Shown here piece by piece: positions 2,751 to 18,100 of a stretch of 32,000 nucleotides of DNA. The first letter of the stretch is position 1. Each line of letters begins with the position of its first letter. A program made the translations under genes and the position numbers. Source of the DNA: Candidatus Saccharimonadota bacterium (lineage in GTDB: Bacteria; Patescibacteriota; Gracilibacteria; Absconditabacterales; Absconditicoccaceae); contig OZ246420.1 in the NCBI GenBank assembly GCA_965231145.1, positions 990,001 through 1,022,000 on the forward strand, read 5' to 3'. The notes under the pieces are model-generated. The model made no database searches, was not told the origin of the DNA, and worked only from the letters and a program-made list of their open reading frames with translations.

Positions 2751-2863
2751 ATTGTATCAATTTAGGTGTGTTTTAATTTTATGTTTGCTTCCGTATTTTA
2801 CTTCTAGAAGACCATTTGTCAATACTTATTTTAGGACAAAAAGAGCCTTTTTGGGGCAATGCT

Positions 2864-4489
2864 ATGCGGAAAAGTGCTTTTGACTATACTTATACTATGG
2901 CGCAAGCTCCGATGCATACGGTGAGTCAGTATACTGCCCCGAAAGGCCCTCAGGAAGGGAAAGCGCTTTCGCTATTGAAAGAAAGAACAAAAGCAGAGCT
3001 TTTTGATGCAATTTCAGCACAAAATGTCCTCCATGGAGGTTGGCAGAAGAATGTAGAAGAATGGTACAACGAGAAGGTAGAAAAAATGATCGCAAGAGGC
3101 AATGATAAAGAGACTGCAGAAAAACTAGCAACGAAGCAAATACAGAAAGTATGGGCAAATGTATGGAGAGGAAAGCTTGCAACACCAGGGACAAAACAAG
3201 GCGATGGATATAAAAATGAGTGAGATAGCGATGGAGAAGGCGCAATATTTCTCATGAAGAAATTTATATTTGGAAATAAATCTTCATTTGTGAACTATCT
3301 CAGTCACGAAGATATAAAAGCGCATGCGCACTCCACCGACTTCAGTGACAAAAATGTACTGAGAATGTTTCTTGATGGCGGAGAGGTGCCAGGATTTACC
3401 GTGGAAAGCAAAGAAGGCAAGGGATTAAAATCTCCATGGAAACAAGCGAAGGTGATCGCCGATCATCATCCACATGGACCAACCTCCACTACCTGAATGG
3501 TAGCTAAATTATTGGAACTCACTCACATTATTCCTGCAAAAGAAAAAAAATATGTAGAGAAATTTGTAAAAACTATCGATGTAGTAGACTCCTTTTTGAG
3601 TAAGGCAGGAAAGGTTTTCGATGTAAAAAAAGAATATGCAAAGACGCTTATCGCTTTCAGTTATTCTCTTGATAGTGAGACACTCTATGAGCTATGTACG
3701 AAGCTTCCCGACAATGTCTGACCATTTTCACCAATCCCTGATGACATCCTCCAAAGCATGGAAGTTATTCCTAAGAAAAAGAAGACAAAAGTAAAACTAC
3801 AAGAGCTTGTTGAGAAAAAACAAAGCAATATTGATGCGTGAGCTATTATGGTAAAAGAAAAATTAGATGAAAAAAAGTTTGTCACTGTTGAATGAAAAAA
3901 ATTTATTATATTTTGACCCAACGACAGCATCCCAACTGACGTAAGGGCAATGCTCAGCGCTGAGTATGGTTGTGGGACTATAGCAGTATTTAAAAATGGT
4001 GATATGATCATCGTACATGATGAAGGGATTCCACAGTCCATGAGAAACCAAAACCTTTGACTAATAGTGCGCGATGTTATTCTTGTTATGAATGCAAACA
4101 CAACAAACAATAATCATATCGAAAAAGGGAAGCAGCTCTATAGTTCGATCCCCGATGGCGAATGAAAGAACTATCTTATGGGCCTCCTCGGCGGCGAAGC
4201 TAAAGAAAAAGTAGAGGTAGAAGCAGAACAAGCTCCGGAAGAAAAGAAAGCTGAACCGGTGGAACCGAAGAAAGAAATTTCTGCTCCTCTTGTTACACCT
4301 CCTCAGGCAACCCAAACTCCAATTGCTCCAAAGAGCGAAGCTCCAGTTCCTCGGCCGTTAGAGAAAAAGAAAATAGCCTCATTTGCTCCGGTCGCAAAAG
4401 AGATGAAAGATGAGATGAAAAAACTTGGCAAAGACATGAAAGAAATGTGGTCTGGCTTTCTCGATATTTTCCGCAGAAAAAAGAAATAA
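2864..4489 (+). CDS. Hypothetical 541-aa protein with a possible degenerate DHH-phosphoesterase-like core, a Lys/Glu/Pro-rich tail and a C-terminal amphipathic helix
   Basis: Track ORFs 2816..3223, 3254..3496, 3497..3721 and 4178..4489 are all in one frame. They are joined by eight in-frame TGA codons (3221, 3494, 3719, 3839, 3893, 3914, 4058, 4163), and I found no TAA/TAG until 4487-4489. The start could be TTG 2816 or ATG 2864. The segment KVIADHHPHGPTSTTGMVAKLLE (DHH at 3461-3469) resembles DHH motif III plus the following helix, and AHAHSTDFSDKNVL weakly resembles motif I. Confidence 0.6.
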
Positions 4490-6237: not shown

Positions 6238-6476
6238 TGTATAAAGAGATGATTTTTTGTATTGGTGAGTTCAATATTGTTTAGATAATTTTTTATGAAG
6301 AAACACATGTAGTCGCAATACACGTGTCAGATCTGTTAATGTTCATCCCTCTTCTAAACACAGTTTAGAGAAGGATAATATATTATATTCACAGATCGAA
6401 ATAAGTCAAGTTTTGGGGCATTTTCCACAAAATCGTCAAAAGATTGTTAATAAGTCGTTTTTAAGGATTTTTTAAG

Positions 6477-6521
6477 GTTTGTGGGACCTATATTTTTACC
6501 TTTTCTTATGATTTTGTAAAC
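6477..6521 (+). repeat. Direct repeat copy 1 (GTTTGTGGGACCTATATTTT ... ATGATTTTGTAAA)
   Basis: Read directly. The 20-mer core matches 6676..6695 at 19 of 20 positions. Both copies continue into ATGATT and TTTTGTAAA segments, with an indel between them. Confidence 0.6.
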
Positions 6522-6538
6522 CACCCGAACAAAACACA

Positions 6539-6562
6539 AAAACAGCTATATATAGCTGTTTT
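6539..6562. repeat. 24-nt perfect palindrome AAAACAGCTATATATAGCTGTTTT (operator or bidirectional terminator-like)
   Basis: Read directly. It has an A-tract on one side and a T-tract on the other, and sits in the 660-nt non-coding stretch upstream of nrdB. Confidence 0.5.
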
Positions 6563-6675
6563 CAGAGCGTTTCAGGATAAAATTATATTGTTTTCATGAG
6601 AAATGCCCTACCTTGCATTATAAACAATACACTTGTTTAATCCTTTTACCTACTCGTTTTTTTATGCTTTTAGGC

Positions 6676-6719
6676 GTTTGTGTGACCTATATTTTATATG
6701 ATTATAGAGTTTTTGTAAA
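6676..6719 (+). repeat. Direct repeat copy 2 (GTTTGTGTGACCTATATTTT ... ATGATT..TTTTTGTAAA)
   Basis: See 6477..6521. The two copies are 199 nt apart. Confidence 0.6.
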
Positions 6720-6814
6720 TAACACTTAGTTATCATTTTTGAAAATCACAACCTCCTTGTGAAATTTTTATGTTGATTTTTGATAATATACCTATATGAC
6801 AGTCCCCAACGAAA

Positions 6815-6830
6815 ACACCATATATAGTAT
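6815..6830 (+). promoter_or_regulatory. NrdR-box-like operator 1 (ACACCATATATAGTAT)
   Basis: About 14 of 16 positions match the published NrdR-box palindrome acaCwAtATaTwGtgt as I remember it. It lies directly upstream of nrdB. Confidence 0.55.
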
Positions 6831-6846
6831 CTTGAAAATATGTTGA

Positions 6847-6862
6847 AAACTATATGTAGTGT
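6847..6862 (+). promoter_or_regulatory. NrdR-box-like operator 2 (AAACTATATGTAGTGT)
   Basis: About 14 of 16 positions match the NrdR-box consensus. Its start is exactly 32 nt after box 1, which is the tandem spacing typical of NrdR sites. It ends 40 nt before the nrdB ATG. Confidence 0.55.
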
Positions 6863-6901
6863 TGAAAACAATTGCTTTTATATAGTAATAATACTCTGGA
6901 A

Positions 6902-7885
6902 ATGGTGTTGATTGGAAGAAAATTAGTGACAGATGGTACGAAACTATCTGATAAACATAGTGTGTTTGAAGACCTCTATAAGAAGCAAAAGCAGGCAATA
7001 TGGTTTCCAGAGGAAATTAACATAGGACTCGATCTCGTAGACTATAAAGGAATGAAGGAAGACGAGAAAACACTCTTTCATGAACTTATCGGATACTTTG
7101 TGACATCAGAGCTTCTCGTACAGAACGTCATCGGTGAATCATTCTATCCATACGTGATCGATGCAAGAGCAAAGATGGCGATGACCGTTCAGATGTTCAT
7201 GGAAGATATTCACTCTGACTTCTTTGAAATGATCCTTCATACGTTTAGCATGAACCGTGATGAGATCTACAGCAAAGCTTCTGAGCATCCAATCATGAAA
7301 GCAAAGCAGGAGATGATCGCTGCAGCAGCAAATCGTATCAGCGTTTCAGCATCAGGAGGTGTAAATCCAGACACCCTCGAAGGAAAGAAAGCTATTTTAA
7401 ATGCGATTCTTATTAACAATATCGTTCAGGAAGGAATCTTCTTCTACTCTGCATTTGCACTCTACTTCGCGATCAGAGAAACAGGAAGAATGAAAAATGT
7501 CTGTAATGGTATGGATCTTGTGCTCATCGATGAAAGTTTCCACCTCAAGATGGGAATAGAAATGATCATGACGATGATTGAAGAAACTCCAGAACTTGTA
7601 CAAGACGCAGCGTTTGTTGAACATATCAGAAAGACAATCATCGAAGGAGCAGAGCTTGAAATGCAATTCCTCCAAAGCCTTCTTACGAACCGCATGATTT
7701 TCGGTGTTCACTACAATGAAATGGTTGATTATCTCAAATATATCGTAGACCGCAGACTCGAAGAACTTGGGTTTGGACCTCACTATCTTATCGAAGGAAA
7801 TCCATTGAAATTCCTACAAAAACAAGACCTTAAAACGCTCCAAAATTTCTTCGAAATCACACCAACACAATATACTAATTTCTAA
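6902..7885 (+). CDS. nrdB: Ribonucleotide reductase small subunit (R2), class I, with R2c-like metal-site features
   Basis: Ferritin-like R2 motifs are present: FVTSELLVQN, FMEDIHSDFF (ExxH), VQEGIFFYSAF, IDESFHL (ExxH) and a C-terminal ...TQYTNF tail. It lies immediately upstream of nrdA. The stop is TAA 7883-7885. I prefer the ATG at 6902 as start; the track start at 6872 is a TTG. Confidence 0.9.
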   Translation: MVLIGRKLVTDGTKLSDKHSVFEDLYKKQKQAIWFPEEINIGLDLVDYKGMKEDEKTLFHELIGYFVTSELLVQNVIGESFYPYVIDARAKMAMTVQMFMEDIHSDFFEMILHTFSMNRDEIYSKASEHPIMKAKQEMIAAAANRISVSASGGVNPDTLEGKKAILNAILINNIVQEGIFFYSAFALYFAIRETGRMKNVCNGMDLVLIDESFHLKMGIEMIMTMIEETPELVQDAAFVEHIRKTIIEGAELEMQFLQSLLTNRMIFGVHYNEMVDYLKYIVDRRLEELGFGPHYLIEGNPLKFLQKQDLKTLQNFFEITPTQYTNF

Positions 7886-7977
7886 AACATCTTAAAATTA
7901 AAAACCAAAATCTTAAAGCAGCTTTCAGTTTTAAGGTTTTAGTTTTACGCTATGCTCTCTTTATTATGTAACGCGTT

Positions 7978-10521
7978 ATGTATCCAATGGCAAAAGTAGT
8001 AATCCACCGCAATGGGCAGGTAGAACCATTTAAAACAGAGAAGGTTATCAACGCTATCAAAGATGTTATTGCAGATATCAAGATAGATGATCCCTTTGTG
8101 GCAATGTTCAAGATCATCAAGAACTTTGAAACAAGACTTGCTGATGAAGTAAAAACAGAAGAGATAGATGGACTGATCTTGAAAGCTATTGAACCGCTCA
8201 TTCCGGAAGATACTATTTACGACCAGATCGCTACAAGACAGCTTGTAAAGCTTATTTCTGAGGATGTAAACAAGAGATTTTCTAGTTTCAGCGAATACAT
8301 TTCGTTTGGTGTGGAAAACAAACTGCTCGATCCAAGGATGAAAGAATTTGATCTTGGCACGCTCGAACTGAACATCAATTACGACAACGATAAATATCTG
8401 AACTATTTCGGAACATCAACGCTTCAGCATAGATATCTCGTCAAGGACCACTCAAAGAACGTGCTTGAGAAGCCACAGTGGATGTGGATGCGTATCGCTA
8501 TGGGTCTCAGCATCCTGGAACCAAATAAGGAAGATTTTGCGATCAAAATTTACAACAAACTTGCAACTCTGAGATATCTTCATTCGACTCCAACCCTCTT
8601 CAACTCAGGAACAAATTTTCCTCAGCTTATCAGCTGTTTCATCGGAGTGATCGGAGACAGTATTGAAGACATTATGGCGAAAGCTACAGATGCAGCTCAG
8701 TATGCGAAGTTTGCAGGAGGAACTGCGATGTCCTTTACGAAACTCAGAGCATCTGGATCAAATATCAAATCTATCAACTCTGCATCATGCGGCCCCATTC
8801 CATTTATTAAAATCTTTGACACAACTGTTGCATCAGTTGCAATCGGTGGAAAGAGAGCATCAAATCTTGTGGCATATCTTGAGCCATGGCATTATAACAT
8901 CGAAGAGTTTCTTGACCTCAAAGAGACCAATGGTAATGAAGCTATGAGAGCAAGAAAGCTTAATACAGCACTCTGGATACCGGATGAATTTATGGAAAGA
9001 GTGATGAGAGATGAAGACTGGTATATGTTCGATCCAAAAGAAACTCCAGAACTCGTAGAAACATGGGGACCAACATTTTCTCAGCACTATAAGAGCTATG
9101 CAGAAAAAGCAGAGAAGGGAGAAATGAAAATGTGGAAAAAGACAAAAGCACAAGAACTCTACAGAGAGATGCTTATCAGGATGGCGAAGACTGGTAACTA
9201 CTGGATCAACTTTAAAGACAGACACAACGAAAAGAGCCAGGCTCCAAGCTACGCCTTGATCCACTCTACAAACATGTGTACAGAGATTTCTATTCCAAAT
9301 CGCGAAGACAGTACAGCAACATGTACACTTGCATCTCTCAATCTCAGCAGATTTGTCATGCACGACAAGCTCGCAAACGTGAAAGAGATGACACTTGAAC
9401 AAAAGCTTGAGTGTATCAACTGGAAAGATCTTGTAGAAACAGCGCAAATAGCAACACAGGCTCTCGACAATGTTATTGAGCTCAATCACTATGTATCAGA
9501 AACTTCAAAGAAAGGAAGCTTTGACCTCAGACCTCTCGGACTTGGAGTTATGGGATTTGGTGAAATGCTCCTCTATCTCGACATTGCATATGAACACGCT
9601 GACGCTCTCGCACTTTCAGACAGGCTTGGTAGTACTATCTATAATGCAGCACTTGAGACATCGAAAGAGCTCGCAAAGACAAGAGGAACATTTGCTGACT
9701 ACGACAGTACAAGATACTCATATGAGCCAAGAAGAAACATTCTCCTTCTTGCTATCGCTCCTACAGCGACTATTTCAAACATTGCAGGAACATCGAGTGG
9801 TATCGAAACATTCTTTTCTAATGTATATGCAAGAGAGACTATCTCTGGTAAGTTCACTATCGTAGTGAAACATCTTATCGAAAGACTCAAGGCTGCAGGT
9901 ATGTGGGATGAAGATATCAGACAGAAAATCATGGATGCACAAGGATCTGTGCAGCATATCGGAGAAATAGATAATGCGTTTAACAAGCAGGTATTTAAGA
10001 CAGTATATGAGTGCTCTCCGGGTTCTCAGATCGACGTTGCGGCTGTATGGCAGAAGTATGTAGATCAGGCTATCTCAAGAAATCTCTACGTGAAAGAGCA
10101 TGAGAGAAGCAGCCTCTTCGACATCTATATGTATGCGTGGAAGCAAGGTCTTAAATCAACATACTACTGCTTCATCGAAAAGAACATTCAAGGAGAAAAG
10201 TATACAGAAAACGTAAATAAGCGTGGTGCTCGTGTAGGATTTTGAGCTGGTTCTCAAGACGCTCCTGCTGCTACAGCTACAACATCTGCAGCGCCAAGAG
10301 GTTTTGGAGCTGTGACGACAACACCCGTTGCTGCCGCTGTTGTAGATCTTACCTCTATCGACTTCAAAAATGTTACTAACGAACAAAGAGCCGCTATCGA
10401 GGCAAAGATGAGAGCAGAAAAGGGTGATGAATATGTAGAGAAACTCAAAGCAGGAACACTTTACGGTGACTCATGCCCTGTTGATCCATTTGAAAAAGTA
10501 ATGTGTGAAGGTTGCCAATAA
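7978..10521 (+). CDS. nrdA: Ribonucleotide reductase large subunit (R1), class I, with N-terminal ATP-cone, 847 aa
   Basis: An ATP-cone is present (VVIHRNGQVEPFKTEKVINAIKDVI), as are the catalytic-core motifs (NLCTEI-like STNMCTEIS, and PTATISNIAGTSSGIE). Track ORFs 7978..10245 and 10312..10521 are in one frame, joined through TGA 10243-10245. The extension ends in ...CPVDPFEKVMCEGCQ, the C-terminal redox cysteine pair expected for R1. Confidence 0.92.
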
Positions 10522-10527
10522 ACACAC

Positions 10528-10556
10528 AAAAAAACATCCCGTTTGGGATGTTTTTT
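10528..10556 (+). terminator. Rho-independent terminator after nrdA
   Basis: AAAAAAACATCCC-GTTT-GGGATGTTTTTT has a 7-bp stem and a T-run, starting 7 nt past the TAA. Confidence 0.8.
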
Positions 10557-10591
10557 AATTCAAAATTCAAAAAGCACAATTCACAATTAAG

Positions 10592-10625
10592 CATGAAGAG
10601 ACGTGCCGCGGCACGTCTCTTCATG
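10592..10625. repeat. 34-nt perfect palindrome CATGAAGAGACGTGCCGCGGCACGTCTCTTCATG
   Basis: Read directly. It starts 3 nt beyond the TAG stop (10629-10631) of the giant minus-strand gene and has no adjacent U-tract. Confidence 0.7.
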
Positions 10626-10628
10626 TAT

Positions 10629-13600
10629 CTATTTCTTAAACACATTAAGCGTCAGAGAGAGATCCTCTGCTCCCGGAGGGAGATTTGTGAAGATAGTAGG
10701 ATTTGCTTTGATGACGATAGCACCGTCGTTTAGCAATCCATCACTAGCTCTCTTATCAAACCAGTTTTCTACAACCGATCTTCTTCCCTTCACGAGATCA
10801 CTAAGATCTGCTCCAAGAAGGATACCATGGATAGTCAGCCTTCCACCATTGATCCAAGGTTTATTGAGATCGCTGTTGAACGCTGGCTGTCCGTCACCTT
10901 CTGCCTTGATATCTTTGAGTCCGATAAAGATACCATGTACTTCCTGATCCTGATTATTTGTCTTCGCATCTCCTTGCGCAGAGAAGATGATATCACCATC
11001 TCTTGCAATAAACATACCATTTGGATTTTGCTGCAGATCACCCTTGATAACGATGTCTCCGTTAATCACGATAAGCGTAAATGCTCATCCCTTGTAACTC
11101 ATCTTATCAAGAACAGTGATCATACCCTTTGTTCCAGCAGGAGTCTTCGCATCTATGACAAAGATATTCTTACTTGGAACTTTTGATACAACTGCTTTTT
11201 GGATAGTCGTATTGTCAGGGAGCTTATCCGTAATGACATCTGCTTTGACTGCGAGCGCAATATACTTATCTACCATCTTGGTGATAAGATTGATATCAAT
11301 ACCTCCGAGCGTAAATGGCTTGAGAGCTTGGATAAGCTCTGATACCGAGAGTACCATTGTTGTATCCTGTCTCTTATATGTATCAAGATCCGGTGTTGAC
11401 GAGAATGTACCACGCGGAGTTCTTGAAACTGCATACTGCTTTGTTACTCCGAAGTTCATCTGACATACTCTATCATATGGTTGGATAGCAGCGCCATTAC
11501 AGAGTTTTCCACTCACCACTTTCATAGTGATCATGTACTCACCGAGTCCAAGATAGTAACTTCCTGTGATCTGTTTTGCTCCAGCTCCACCAGGATATAT
11601 TTCAAGACCATATGCTATCTTCGCTGCGTTAAATGCTGTATCAATAAGCGGCAATTGCGGGTTATCATAACACGGCTGTGTCCATGTGATCACATGACCA
11701 TTTGGTCCTTGGAGATCAAACTTACACTGAAGAGAAGTAAGATTTACTCTTACATCTTTCGGCTGCGTCGTACACGATGATGTGACAAGAAGACGACCAG
11801 AACCAGCAGTTGTATAACCATATTCCATATCCCACCGATAAGGCATATATTCACCTACGTTAATAGCTGGTGGGTCTATATAACTACACTTCACTTCTGC
11901 GGTCATACCAGGAGGCTGATCTCTGAACTTACAGTCAGGACCACATACTCTTCCTGCAGGCACACCTGCTGGTTTTATACCAAGCGCAGCATTACCTGGA
12001 TCACATTGTTCACCTCTACTTGGCTGATAGAGACCATCTCCACAATATGGATATGATCCACCACCACCTCCTCCTCAACCACCACCTCATCAGCAGTTTG
12101 TACAAGGAACAATAGGTCATACACTTGCTTGAGATTCATCGTCTTCTACTCATGTATTTCTTCCTCTATTACACGGATTACTATCTCTATCTTTTACTCC
12201 ATTTGTCGCACTCATACCAATATATGAACACACTTCTGCATAGTTAGTTTCAACTACAGTACTTCTATAAGTACCCTGGAAAGTAATAGTGATAGAATCA
12301 CCAGGATTGAGTTGTGGAAGATTATAAAATGTAATATCTTTTGCCCCACTCAGGATCACATTCATCCCCGACGGTCACGTCGGATTTCCAAGATAGTCTA
12401 TACCCGCTGGAAGATAATCCTGTACTGTGTAACCGTTTACTGGCGATGGCACATCAGATTCATTGGTTACTCTGATAGTATAAGTCACTGTTTCACCATT
12501 TGCTGCAACCGATTTATCAATCATTTTTTGCAGGTTGATGTCAAAAAAACCTGTAGCAGAAACATCTCCTGTAGTAGTCGTTGTTGCTTCACCACAGTTA
12601 TTATTGTTGTAGTTATTGTCTCCTTCGATACAGACGACATTACGGTAAATATGCCCGCTAGCAAATTGTGTGACAATCTGTGCCTGGATAGAAACAAGCC
12701 CGCTATAACCTGGAGCCATATTAGTAAATCCAGTCCATATGAGAGTCTGGCCCGAAGCAGGCGTTCCGGCAACGATCGGATGACCAATATTGATTCCTGA
12801 AAGAATCGTTATTGATCCTGAAACATATGCTGTTCCCACTGGAAGCGAGTCAAGAAGCGACCAATTTGGTGCGGCGATTTGTCCGCTATTTCCATATCTA
12901 ATCGTATACGTTACAATATCTCCTGAGATAACCAATGGTCTGTCGATCACCTTGCTTGAGTAAAGATCGTAACAGAGCACGAGAAATTGTGCATTATCCT
13001 GAGCTGGAGCTGCGTTCGTAGCAGTAATTCTTCCGAGATTATCAACAATCTGATTTACACACACTGGCACAGTCGATCTGATTCTTACAAGGATTCTAAT
13101 AATACCTTGCTGACCAGGCAGAAGTGTTCCAATATTCCATGTAAGTGTCTGACCAGCTACTACTGAAGGCGAAGGGATCGCTGAAACAAAAGTAAGATCT
13201 GCTGGAAGTGTATCAGTCAACACAACACCTGTTGCTGTTCCGCTTCCTGAGTTACCGTATGTGAGTGTATAAATTGCATATCCATTTGGCACATATCCGC
13301 CAGTACTTGCTGCCACATCTTTTTGGATGTAGAGCTGTGGATTGAGCGGACACTGAATAGGTGACGTGACAAATGCACTATTATTAAACAGTGTGATTTC
13401 TGGAGTCACTGTCGCGATACTTACATCATTTCTCACTGTCACACAATTCGGTGTATTTCCTCTGATCCTTGTTGTCATCTGGATGACACCACCCGCATGC
13501 CCCACAATAGTTCCGAGATTATATCTTATGGTTGTTGTTCCATTTGCATTTGGTGTTACTGATGTCGGCGCCGGGATACTACTTATAAAATCAATTCCTG

Positions 13601-15077
13601 TACCCAAAATATCAGTGATGATCACACCTGTGGCAGCACCTGTTCCTATATTATTATAGAGAATCGTATAGTTAAGAATTCCACTTTGTACGTTACTTCC
13701 TGTGACTGATTTTGCGATCGCGAGATCGGGCGGCAGCACTACAGGAGGACACTGGATAGGCGATGTTACCATCGCATCGTTGTTCAGTGAATTTGAATCG
13801 TTCGTTGCAGAAACATTTACCCTATTGATAACTGTTGAACAGTTTGGAACTGTCAGTTTAATCTGCGCCTTAAAAACAATGGTACCTACTGCACCCGGCG
13901 CTACATTTCCGATATTCCATTTGATGGTTGTTGTTCCATCGACATTGAGCACAACAGAACTTGCTCCTGGAAGACTTGTTCCCGGAAGGAAAGTAAGACC
14001 TGTTCCAAGCGTATCAGTAATGACTACTCCGTTTGCAGTTCCTGCACCGAGGTTTCTATAGGTAATAGTATATGTTACTTCATTTCCTTGGATATTTGAC
14101 CCAGTAACTGATTTTGTCACAGTCATATCTGACGGTGGCGGAGGCGCTACCGGCGTACACATAGCAGAACATGTACTTCCTGGAGCTCCGTTCAAAGAAC
14201 CAAGGTCACATATTTCTGAAGCTGAACCGATATTGAATGATCCTACGTCAACAATACCATCACCACACCAGTGTACAGTCACGTTCATACATTCGTATGG
14301 TACGCGAGACTCTGATCCCCAACTTATCGCAGCCGAAGTCACTGATGATGTGCTCAGCACATAATGCGTTGGCCAGATCGGTGAAGATGTCGTCCATGAT
14401 GAACTGATATACCATGCATTGAACACGGCTCATCCATCTGTCGGACTAGCTGTAGGATACAACCAATAGTTATTTGTACCTGCAATCTTTGCTGAAAAAG
14501 GTCTATAGGCAATTTCGTATCCGATCTGAAATGTTCTCGATGCGATACTGTTGCTATCTGGCGCCGAAACCAAAAGCGGATGACTTTCTACTGCTCTTAC
14601 CCAGACGTCTTTCGGCGCGATCTTTGATTGTCTGTACCGTGCCATAGTAGTGTTAAGCGGCTGCGTCGTTGTTCCCACAAGCTTGGTGAGCATATTTTGA
14701 CCTCCGGCAGGAAGAAAGTATCTTACTTTTGTTCCTGGGAAGCCTGACTGTCTTCCTCAAATAAGATAGACTGGCGTTGTTCCTCCATTCATGACAAAAT
14801 TATCTCTTGCATAGTAGTTTGTACCAAGGTCTTTGATACCATCACCATTCAGATCATGAGCGAGATAGTAGTCTCTTGAGACATTTGCCTTCGTACAGAC
14901 TGATGCAGGAAGCGCAGAAGTTGCAGTTTCTTGGTCAAACAAGAGATTGTTCGTTGAATCAACGTATCCATTTTGGTACGTGTAACTTGGTCCAGGAATA
15001 ACTGCATATGCTGAAGAGATAAACCCTAGTCAAAGGGTTATCGCCATTCAGAACACTACTTTCAGCAAGTATTTCAT
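10629..15077 (-). CDS. Giant secreted surface protein, 1482 aa: signal peptide, 5 DUF11-type repeats, two CGDG...CD Cys-rich motifs, poly-Gly linker, uncharacterised C-terminal domain
   Basis: Six track fragments (14757..14942, 14430..14693, 12375..14426, 12150..12365, 11085..11963, 10629..11069) share one frame. They are joined by 11 in-frame TGA codons, and I translated every gap and found no TAA/TAG. The N-terminus MKYLLKVVFGMAITLGLGFISSAYA is signal-peptide-like. There are five ~125-aa repeats with the DUF11/TIGR01451-like signature (for example KSVTGSNIQGNEVTYTITYRNLGAGTANGVVITDTLGTGLTF). The motifs HWCGDGIVD and YCGDGLYQPSRGEQCD are also present. The stop is TAG. Confidence 0.85.
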
Positions 15078-15111
15078 GAAAAGTACAAAAAAAGGGTAAA
15101 TTATATGCAAA

Positions 15112-15139
15112 ATACTAGTATTTAATTGCTATTTGTCAA
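15112..15139 (-). promoter_or_regulatory. Candidate sigma70-type promoter in the 66-nt spacer between the two giant genes
   Basis: The minus-sense sequence has TTGACA (15139..15134), a 16-nt spacer and TAGTAT (15117..15112). This is a pattern match only. Confidence 0.3.
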
Positions 15140-15143
15140 GGTT

Positions 15144-18100
15144 TTATGGGTCTTGGCTGCCATTGTTTCCGGTTCCACCAGAGCCAGTATTTCCACCAGG
15201 ATCTTGATTTCCATTATTACCCGGATTAGTACTTGGACCATCCGTACCGTCAACAGGATTTGAACCTGGTGTTCCATCAACTCCGTCAACAGGATTTGAA
15301 CCCGGTGTTCCATTGCCTCCTTGTCAAGCACTTCCCCCACTATTTGATCCTCTTGTTGAGCTTGAACGGGTTGTTTGTCCGCCCGCCATGATACCAAGTC
15401 CAATCTTAAAAGTGTTTACTGTAAGGTAGTTATTTGTGTACTCTACACCCACATATACTCCTTCTTTCTTGTAGCTCACAATCATCTCACCAAAGCGGAG
15501 CATATATGCTTCATTTGCACATGGACCATTGAGTACTTTTTCAAAGACTGATGGAAGTTCTATCTTCACACCATTAATCTCGATCACCTTATTTTTAATA
15601 AGTTCTTTCATCTGCGCATCATCGAGGTGCACATTGACACCATTAGCCTTAAGTGCTTCATTGATCTTCTGATGTTGAACTTTAAACTCGTTAGTTCCTT
15701 GAAGAATATCAATAAACTTATCATATACTTTCTTTTCGCTTGAGGCGTCTTTCTTAAATTCTTTTCCATTTCCTGTAGCGATATCGACCTCCCCAAATCC
15801 AATCATTCCAGTCGTAGGAACAAGACCTCTTCTGTAGTAACCCACGAGAGCTACGGCGTTTCACACTGGCACATCACCATATTTCTCTTTCTTCCCATCA
15901 ACATCCTTTGCATCATCATAAATATCATCAAAAGCGTGAGCATCGATAACCACATTACTTGCCTTAAATGCATCTATATGTCCTCTTCTGTTTTTCAAAA
16001 GCGTTCCTACTGACTCAGAACCAGCATATCATTTTCATTTTCTAATTGCTTCTACTCTTGCTGAAAGCGAACCAGCCTGAAGGAAGACATTGACGATCTG
16101 TCTCTTATGCTCATCACTCTTGTCCCACATATCTTCAAATTCACGCCACTGCTCTTCATTTGCAAAAAGCTTCAAATATCTCGTGATGATTGTACTTATC
16201 TTCAATCTAATCTTCTCATATATTTCCGGCGAAGCAGTTTTTCTCGTTAATGCCACGAACTCACCGAAAAGAGCATTATACTTTTCTTTATTTATATTGT
16301 CTGATTTTGTGGCATTGAGAAATTTGTCCCTCGCATCTGAACCTCTCAAAATTTCATTAATAAGAACTTTATCAGCCATAGGAATATCTGGGCCAAAGTC
16401 GAGCGATATTCTTCTTACTTCTACTTCTGGATGTTGATCACCTTCAGCAAATGTTTCTGGCTTACCATTGATAGATTTGTTGACTGGAATCTTTTTCAAG
16501 TCAGCATCTTTCTTCCTATCATAGCCAAGATATATCTTCTCTTTTGTTGTATAGGCATTGATAAGTCTGCCTGCAAAGACACTCATACCCTTAGGAAATA
16601 CGATACGATCACCTGCCACAATAACTGACGATGGATCTTTCACAAACACATCACACTGATCATAGAGCGGTCTTTCGTCTTTATTACGCTTAGATTTAGC
16701 TATCGTAATTGTTCCTTCTGTGCCCGACACCTTGAAGTCTTCTCCAAGCCAGTACTGAAGTTTCTCTACAGCACTCATACCGTTCACATCAGAATTATCA
16801 AAATTTCTGAATGCATTCAAGCTATCAAGATTTGCTTCTTTCTTTTGCTTATCGTACATATCCGTCCATGTCGTTGATCTTCCATAGATAGTGATTCCTA
16901 TAAAGATTTTGATAATTGGTACACTGAGCACAGTTCCAATACCTACTTCTACCGAAAGATCACCATGCCCCTTACTTTCCTTCAATGCATGATTTGTCCA
17001 GTTCGATATATATGTTTCTGCGATCTCATCTGTTGTCAGATTAAATGTTTCCATACCATCTACGATATGTTGTGCAAGCTGTCTGATGTATTTTCTATTT
17101 TCAGGATCAGCAGAAGGAAGTTGCTCCAAAAGTATTTGTTCAACCTGCGGCGTCTTCATCCCAACCTTCACATCTTTCAGTACATCTTTTATAACGCGCT
17201 CCATATTTTGCGACTGACGTTCAATACCAGCCATAAGATTGCTTCCTACATAGAAACCAGCTCCAAAATAAACTGGGCTTGCTTCTACAAACATTCCGCC
17301 CTTCCACATTGGTGTCGGAACAAGTGTCGACTTAAGCTTCTGTCCATTGAGTACCTGATCAACACTTAAGCGAGTAAATGGCACGATGTTTGCTATACCA
17401 ACATCCGCATGCACTGTTACATCTTCACTCATCTGTATATCCATACCAAGATCTATCACAAAGCCTGGTTGTCCTGACGTACTCATACCAAGTCCAATAC
17501 TCATACGCTCAGAGATATCTCCTGCTCTTCCCATATCGATAGATACTCCCGCTCCAAGACCTACAACATTTACTCCACTATTAGTCACTCTATTTGTCGA
17601 CGAAACAATATTACCATTTTTATCAACAACGTTTTCTGTATGTACGTCTGTCTTAGAAACCATTAAAGCTCCTCCTGCAATTTGTAATGCAGCATAGCGA
17701 TCAAGTTTTCTCTGTATCTCTTGTCTATCAGCAGCACTCAAGGTTGAAGAGGTTGCTTTTGCAGCAGCATCAATAGCTGCTGCTGTTTTCTTACGAATCT
17801 CTTTACCATATTGTTTTTCTACAATATTTGCAGCGCTTTCCATTTGCTCCTCAGACGTCATTTCTTTTTCATAAGGAAGCTTCTTCATAGGCTCAGTAAG
17901 CCAATTTTTCAAAGAGACTACTGTCATATGAGGCAATACTTCATAGAGAAGATCTCTTACCATCTGGAGCGTATCTCCATCATCAAGAAGCTCTGAAAAT
18001 TCTGCAGCATTATTCCATCTTGGAAGGTCATTTCTGCCTCTTGCACGCATCATTCTTGAAAGTCTCTTATAAAGAGCAGCAGAGAACTCATCTTGTCCCA

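Follow-up and report, generated by a model that had tools for sequence, protein, structure and literature searches.

An nrdB–nrdA operon with a probable class Ic-type R2 subunit is the sole ribonucleotide reductase of an SR1 bacterium

The nrdB and nrdA genes of this SR1 bacterium constitute its sole ribonucleotide reductase (RNR), which is likely to be a single, functional, aerobic class I enzyme whose beta subunit is of class Ic (R2c) type and is predicted to carry a Mn(IV)/Fe(III) cofactor. The bacterium would make its deoxynucleotides solely via an O2-dependent RNR that is free of a tyrosyl radical, with a large subunit (R1) whose full length is reached only under genetic code 25. The nrdB product is a divergent but ordinary class Ic-type addition and introduces nothing conceptually new; through it, the few known class Ic lineages are joined by a divergent subfamily of at least 120 database clusters, every one with a radical-site Phe and all uncharacterized. 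This subfamily might provide a second, remote system for asking what leads an R2 scaffold to select Mn/Fe. Coordinates (Table 1) refer to the window, i.e., the whole 32,000-nucleotide stretch of DNA that was analyzed.

Table 1. Features of the nrdB–nrdA region, in window coordinates
Feature	Position	Strand	Details
NrdR-box-like operator 1	6815..6830	+	ACACCATATATAGTAT; 2 mismatches to the 16-nt NrdR palindrome
NrdR-box-like operator 2	6847..6862	+	AAACTATATGTAGTGT; 32 nt from box 1
nrdB (R2/beta, class Ic-type, P0001)	6902..7885	+	327 aa; Pfam assignment Ribonuc_red_sm (PF00268, 4e-59); Chlamydia trachomatis R2c best PDB matches; AlphaFold2 model
Trp34 (TGG), electron-transfer path	7001..7003	+	E. 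coli W48, C. trachomatis W51
Glu70 (GAG), first metal ligand	7109..7111	+	E. coli D84, C. trachomatis E89; motif FVTSELLVQN
Glu101-x-x-His104, first ExxH ligand pair	7202..7213	+	GAA 7202-7204, CAC 7211-7213; FMEDIHSDFF; E. coli E115/H118
Phe108 (TTT), tyrosyl-radical position	7223..7225	+	E. coli Y122, C. trachomatis F127; 4 residues past His104
Glu177, bridging ligand	7430..7432	+	E. coli E204
Glu211-x-x-His214, second ExxH ligand pair	7532..7543	+	E. coli E238/H241
Tyr324, C-terminal tail, inter-subunit radical transfer	7871..7873	+	E. coli Y356, C. trachomatis Y338
nrdA (R1/alpha, P0002)	7978..10521	+	847 aa; Pfam ATP-cone, Ribonuc_red_lgN, Ribonuc_red_lgC
In-frame TGA read as Gly (code 25)	10243..10245	+	redox tail ...CPVDPFEKVMCEGCQ downstream of the codon
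Hairpin with flanking A and T runs, likely operon terminator	10529..10556		minus strand in the scan; T-run after the stem on the plus strand too

Diagnostic residues of the nrdB product

The table 11 frame that holds nrdB extends from 6872 to 7885; TTG at 6872 was rejected as the start codon and ATG at 6902 is preferred, because the resulting product has the length of nearly all of its relatives (326–327 aa). In a MAFFT (--auto) alignment of the query with E. coli K-12 NrdB (from NC_000913.3; residue numbers omit Met1) and 119 further R2 sequences, two of the E. coli residues are replaced (D84 by E70, and Y122 by F108) and the others are kept: W48 (W34), E115 (E101), H118 (H104), E204 (E177), E238 (E211), H241 (H214), and Y356 (Y324). 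The HMMER alignment to C. trachomatis R2c (Ct R2c; 1SYY) places E70 on E89, F108 on F127, W34 on W51, and Y324 on Y338, and F108 also lies opposite the mutant Tyr of 2ANI, the F127Y variant of Ct R2c. The four carboxylate ligands of the metal site are all Glu (E70, E101, E177, and E211) and are joined by H104 and H214; three residues follow Tyr324 at the C-terminus.

An earlier reading of the sequence alone had proposed that the radical Tyr is replaced by Phe and the first ligand Asp by Glu, with the other ligands and the C-terminal tail intact. The two alignments bear out both replacements, F108 falling on E. coli Y122 and Ct F127 and E70 on E. coli D84 and Ct E89; the inclusion of E. coli NrdB and Ct R2c restores neither a Tyr at the radical site nor an Asp ligand, and E101, H104, E177, E211, H214, and Y324 are all aligned with their counterparts. 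The codons that it had assigned to the first ligand, the first ExxH pair, and the radical position (7109–7111, 7202–7204, 7211–7213, and 7223–7225) are correct on re-reading.

These residues are conserved across the family, the named members of which are Absconditabacterales (SR1). Among 121 aligned R2 sequences, comprising the query and relatives at 54–94% identity, Phe at the radical site and the five metal ligands other than the first are present throughout (121/121 in each case), Glu is present at ligand 1 in 119 (the remaining two are fragments with a gap there), and the C-terminal Tyr is present in 118. The SR1-type family also has invariant second-sphere residues of its own, D106 and F107 (HSDFF).

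Similarity to solved proteins and class assignment

Ct R2c (1SYY/4D8F, 125 bits) and the R2c 6Y2N (111 bits) are the best sequence matches to the nrdB product in the PDB, with lower scores for human R2 (86 bits), E. coli NrdB (62 bits; phmmer), and R2lox (27 bits). An AlphaFold2 model of the product (42 relatives; pLDDT 89.6, pTM 0.89) was compared with the PDB using Foldseek: the top 14 matches are all R2c-type, led by Ct NrdB chains (TM 0.85–0.89, rmsd 1.7–2.1 Å) and ending with 6Y2N at rank 14 (TM 0.81, rmsd 4.1 Å), and E. coli NrdB appears from rank 15. Identity is 27% to a Chlamydia-type R2c, 26–27% to Ct by structure alignment, and 19–21% to E. coli NrdB in structure alignments. None of the NCBIfam RNR-beta equivalog models matches the product at its cut-off (best 195 bits vs. 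237), which indicates a divergent subfamily; a protein atlas look-up returned generic RNR small-subunit clusters only.

With Ct R2c (1SYY, 4D8F, 4M1I) the nrdB product shares Glu as the first ligand (E89/E70), Phe at the radical site (F127/F108), a first coordination sphere of four Glu and two His, the pathway residues W51/W34 and Y338/Y324, and the same fold. It differs in its approximately 27% identity, in the helix motif (FEEAVHTHTF in Ct R2c, FMEDIHSDFF in the nrdB product) at second-sphere positions, and in its placement in another sub-clade, on a long branch. The 6Y2N-type R2c (cluster P0147, which includes Bradyrhizobium and Tardiphaga proteins) has the same Glu/Phe combination at ligand 1 and the radical site (E/F) and the same ligands, also at 27% identity. 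E. coli class Ia NrdB has the same fold and agrees with the nrdB product at W48, at Y356, and at five ligands out of six, whereas its Asp84 and radical Tyr122 are both replaced in the nrdB product.

Class Ic is defined by Phe in place of the radical Tyr, a Mn/Fe center, retention of the C-terminal Tyr, and absence of the R2lox cross-link (PMC3824934; PMC8463856). The nrdB product has F108, E70, the five other ligands, and W34 with Y324, and its cognate R1 has the catalytic and Tyr-Tyr residues; with every residue by which R2c is recognized at the sequence level in place and Ct R2c as the best solved match, the class Ic-like assignment made in the sequence-only reading is supported. Other classes were considered and rejected: class Ia/Ib, since F108 and E70 stand where Tyr and Asp are expected; class Id (NrdBi-type, Tyr retained; Flavobacterium johnsoniae 6CWO/6CWP), which gives a partial match of 40–44 bits over residues 125–326 and has a Tyr that the nrdB product lacks at this site; and class Ø. 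The class Ø RNR has a minimal alpha subunit and a ferritin-like partner that ends one residue after the pathway Tyr, Y239 (Burnim et al., 2022; PMC9531940), whereas the alpha subunit here has 847 aa with an ATP-cone and the beta subunit has 327 aa with three residues past the Tyr.

Phylogenetic placement

In a search of 1.84 billion representatives, the family stands isolated: identity to the nrdB product drops from 55% to 38%, 33%, and 30%, with only 11 representatives at E <= 1e-30. The SR1 family forms a group with a support of 100 on a stem of 1.0–1.2 substitutions per site (FastTree, IQ-TREE PMSF), and is sister (98) to P0125/P0126/P0131 inside a clade of 14–15 rows that all have Glu and Phe (95). 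Members P0125 and P0138 of this all-Glu/Phe clade score 265 and 230 bits, respectively, to Ct R2c, and at most 130 bits to other solved proteins. The nearest relatives outside the SR1 family are P0125, P0126, P0131, and the R2 of a genome of the same class from another family (G005, L014), at 33–38% identity; all are E/F and strongly R2c-like (265 bits to 1SYY), and they differ from the nrdB product in the motif QMWEEANHCVAF and in a C-terminal extension past the pathway Tyr.

A motif search among the matches retrieved no actual Chlamydia sequence, and P0147 was used as a stand-in for the Chlamydia type (near-identical to 6Y2N, 459 bits to 1SYY, motif RQAFEEAVHTHTF). These trees include named R2c from neither Chlamydia nor haloarchaea; in them, P0147 falls among Asp/Tyr proteins (96), apart from the SR1 clade, and the E/F signature may therefore have arisen more than once. 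A single clade for all Tyr-less rows is not rejected by the AU test (p = 0.3), and the backbone of the 46-row clade is without resolution. R2c has been described as possibly polyphyletic, and Leu, Ile, and Val variants at the radical site are known (PMC3824934).

Several distant relatives depart from both the E/F and the Asp/Tyr (D/Y) combinations: in P0129, P0168, and P0184, Glu is combined with a radical-site Ile or Val, and in P0139, P0155, P0181, and P0206, Glu is present at ligand 1 and the Tyr is kept. The metagenomic P0228 has Phe at the radical site and has lost three carboxylates (D84 to Ser, E115 to Leu, and E238 to Ala), with W48 and the C-terminal Tyr kept; for comparison, class Ie proteins are without three carboxylate ligands and keep the Tyr. 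A D/Y protein, P0146, has an insertion of approximately 150 aa in the second ExxH motif, between the ligand Glu and the His, which is probably an intein.

Predicted cofactor and mechanism

Mn(IV)/Fe(III) is the most likely cofactor of the nrdB product, because its first coordination sphere is identical to that of Ct R2c and its closest solved homolog uses Mn/Fe. Several sequence-derived features count against this class Ic-type reading: the 27% identity, the long stem, the differing second sphere, the grouping of P0147, and the equivalog cut-offs that were not reached. A functional Tyr-less class I R2 that holds its oxidant on a different dinuclear center, Mn2(IV/III) as in class Id or Fe2(IV/III), is an alternative that we regard as unlikely. 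It could draw on the low identity to the Chlamydia-type R2c, on the family's own invariant D106 and F107, on the separation of P0147 (Chlamydia type) from the SR1 clade, and on the known mis-metallation of the R2c scaffold (PMC8463856); however, the four Glu and two His of the first sphere are those of Ct R2c, class Id keeps its Tyr and matches weakly and in part (6CWO, 43 bits, residues 125–326), and the closest solved protein, by fold and by sequence, is a Mn/Fe enzyme.

It is also unlikely that the SR1-type R2 is a Tyr-less lineage that evolved separately or split off very early, with a choice of metal or a mode of activation unlike the Mn(IV)/Fe(III) of Chlamydia. As the only RNR of a bacterium with a reduced genome, such an R2 would make DNA synthesis strictly dependent on O2 or H2O2 in a member of a lineage generally regarded as anaerobic.

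For the class Ic-type reading, the following mechanism is proposed by analogy with Ct R2c. With no oxidizable Tyr by the metal site, Mn would occupy site 1 beside Phe108 and Fe would occupy site 2; upon reaction with O2 or H2O2, the metal center, as Mn(IV)/Fe(III), would hold the oxidizing equivalent in place of a tyrosyl radical. In turnover, the path of the hole would run via Trp34 and Tyr324 of the beta subunit to Tyr730/Tyr729 and then to Cys434 of the alpha subunit, where a Cys434 thiyl radical would start nucleotide reduction. The electrons would come from Cys220 and Cys449, and the C-terminal Cys-rich tail of the alpha subunit would return this pair to the reduced state. Control by dATP/ATP would be exerted via the alpha ATP-cone and the upstream NrdR boxes. 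The organism would need to encounter O2 or H2O2, and both Mn and Fe would probably be required. If hydroxyurea acts here as it does on the Chlamydia enzyme (PMC8463856), its target would be either the metal cofactor or a Tyr radical of the pathway, and not a stable tyrosyl radical.

The nrdA gene and the genetic code

The nrdA product has an N-terminal ATP-cone, a catalytic barrel, and a Cys-rich C-terminal tail, and its best PDB match is Pseudomonas aeruginosa NrdA (5IM3). By alignment, C220, N432, C434, E436, and C449 correspond to E. coli C225, N437, C439, E441, and C462, and Y729-Y730 to E. coli Y730-Y731. Chlamydia R1 has three ATP-cones, unlike the R1 here, in which one was detected and whose gene is read with TGA as Gly.

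Under table 11, a 755-aa ORF and a 69-aa ORF take the place of nrdA, and the shorter of the two holds the redox-active Cys tail; the sequence-only reading had passed over this break. The 755-aa version, which ends at 10245 without a C-terminal Cys pair, was rejected: TGA is a sense codon here, and the CEGCQ tail lies in frame beyond it. Allowing TGA doubles the codons that lie in long ORFs (150 aa or more) of the window, from 7,579 to 15,885, a UCA-anticodon tRNA is encoded in the genome, and in the nrdB genes of relatives TGA lies opposite a Gly of the nrdB product in 10 of 14 cases; the context of the nrdA codon (GF-TGA-AG) also parallels a later GFGAV. Many other genes of the window are split by TGA likewise; for example, 2816–4489 is one 557-aa frame with eight TGA codons. 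The nrdB gene itself has no TGA codon.

Recoding of CGA/CGG as Trp has been reported for Absconditabacterales (PMC13092985). Neither nrdB nor nrdA contains a CGA or CGG codon, so that such recoding cannot change either translation, and an effect of Arg-to-Trp recoding on the diagnostic residues was rejected. This genome may read CGA/CGG as Trp too, since the acceptor ends of its tRNA(UCG) and of one of its three tRNA(CCG) look like those of its tRNA-Trp(CCA) (5' TAGGG… / …CCCTGA; G000:C1 380013–380085 and 1091292–1091364) and CGU/CGC is served by a tRNA(GCG). In relatives, the essential W48-equivalent Trp (the column of 7001–7003) is coded as CGA in the R2 genes of L007 (G042), L036, L037, L038, and L040, which include both E/F and D/Y types, and Arg is printed at the Trp34 column in 31 of the 121 aligned database proteins. 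The CGA codons and the Arg at this conserved Trp fit the published recoding, and imply that many database translations from this family are wrong at Trp positions.

Operon structure and function as the sole RNR

The nrdB gene heads an operon in the order NrdR-like boxes, nrdB, nrdA, and hairpin. The adjacency of nrdA, noted in the sequence-only reading, holds: nrdA starts 92 nt 3' of nrdB. A scan of the window with a 16-nt NrdR palindrome gave six matches against 0.75 expected, and the two operators upstream of nrdB are the two best; the genome also encodes nrdR, at another locus. The non-coding leader of approximately 660 nt before nrdB (6238–6901) is unusually long for a compact genome and contains, besides the NrdR boxes, a perfect palindrome at approximately 6537–6564.

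The genome is a single contig of 1.107 Mb and is 99% complete. It holds no second R2, no second PF02867 protein (and hence no class II RNR), and no NrdD. The nrdB–nrdA pair is thus the organism's sole RNR and its sole route to dNTPs, so its beta subunit has to be functional as part of an RNR. Together, the residues of the nrdB product, the complete R1, the operon, and the sole-RNR status argue for a functional Tyr-less RNR of class Ic type.

These observations also bear on whether the nrdB product could be something other than an RNR subunit in function, either an R2lox-like oxidase or a catalytically dead beta-prime, which is very improbable. R2lox proteins (e.g., 4HR0) resemble the nrdB product in their ferritin-like fold and Tyr-less site (Mn/Fe-binding in the known members), they likewise have Glu and Phe at the two diagnostic positions (PMC3824934), and an NCBIfam R2lox model gives a weak match of 51 bits. 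That match is far below the cut-off (NF006200, 50.9 bits vs. 194), as is the second (NF006202, 45 bits vs. 315), and the R2lox score in the PDB search was likewise low. Retention of the Trp48 and Tyr356 equivalents is a criterion that separates R2c from R2lox (PMC3824934); these residues, absent from or unneeded by R2lox, are conserved in the nrdB product, including the C-terminal Tyr that interacts with R1. The co-operonic, complete nrdA behind NrdR boxes is likewise unlike R2lox, and the genome offers a dead subunit no other R2 to partner and no other RNR class to rely on. R2lox was rejected on the model scores and the C-terminal Tyr, and the preference for a functional R2 over an R2lox-type oxidase in the sequence-only reading is upheld.

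A protein radical at another site, on a Tyr near the metal or on a modified residue as in class Ie, is also highly improbable. Five Tyr are invariant in the SR1-type family (Y26, Y65, Y123, Y182, and Y277); of these, Y182 and Y65, counted along motifs, stand at the positions of E. coli Y209 and Y79, which are not known to be radical sites. Tyr occupies the position just before the radical-site Phe in five relatives (5/121; HNDYFEM), whereas Phe is found there in the query and in 116 of the 121 aligned sequences, and the sequence-only statement that no Tyr lies nearby is true for the nrdB product. Class Ie R2 has lost three carboxylate ligands and converts its Tyr to a DOPA radical (PMC8463856); it was rejected, since all six ligands are present in the nrdB product and the Tyr is not.

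RNR types in related genomes

We surveyed R2 in 200 other genomes of the same class, 22 of which belong to the organism's own family. Within the family, the SR1-type E/F R2 was found in seven genomes (58–75% identity) and a canonical Asp/Tyr R2 in six, and nine gave no R2 match. Genomes of the other families of the class have a Chlamydia-like E/F R2 (EEAIHTDTF), a D/Y R2, or no match, and the P0125-type R2 occurs in one genome of another family. A search of the literature collection used here returned nothing specific on the RNR type of Absconditabacteria, SR1, or Gracilibacteria.

A further sample covered 41 genomes of the family, this genome among them; of these, 20 have NrdD and 34 have a PF02867 protein. 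Among the seven genomes with an SR1-type R2 that were searched for NrdD, five have it, and it is absent from this genome and from G159; a congener (G225), searched for NrdD only, gave no match. Some family genomes have a shorter alpha subunit, in frames of approximately 500 aa, which may be a candidate class II RNR. The RNR repertoire of this one family is a mosaic in which SR1-type E/F and D/Y class I enzymes, candidate class II enzymes, and NrdD occur in varying combinations, which points to frequent replacement of RNR in these reduced genomes.
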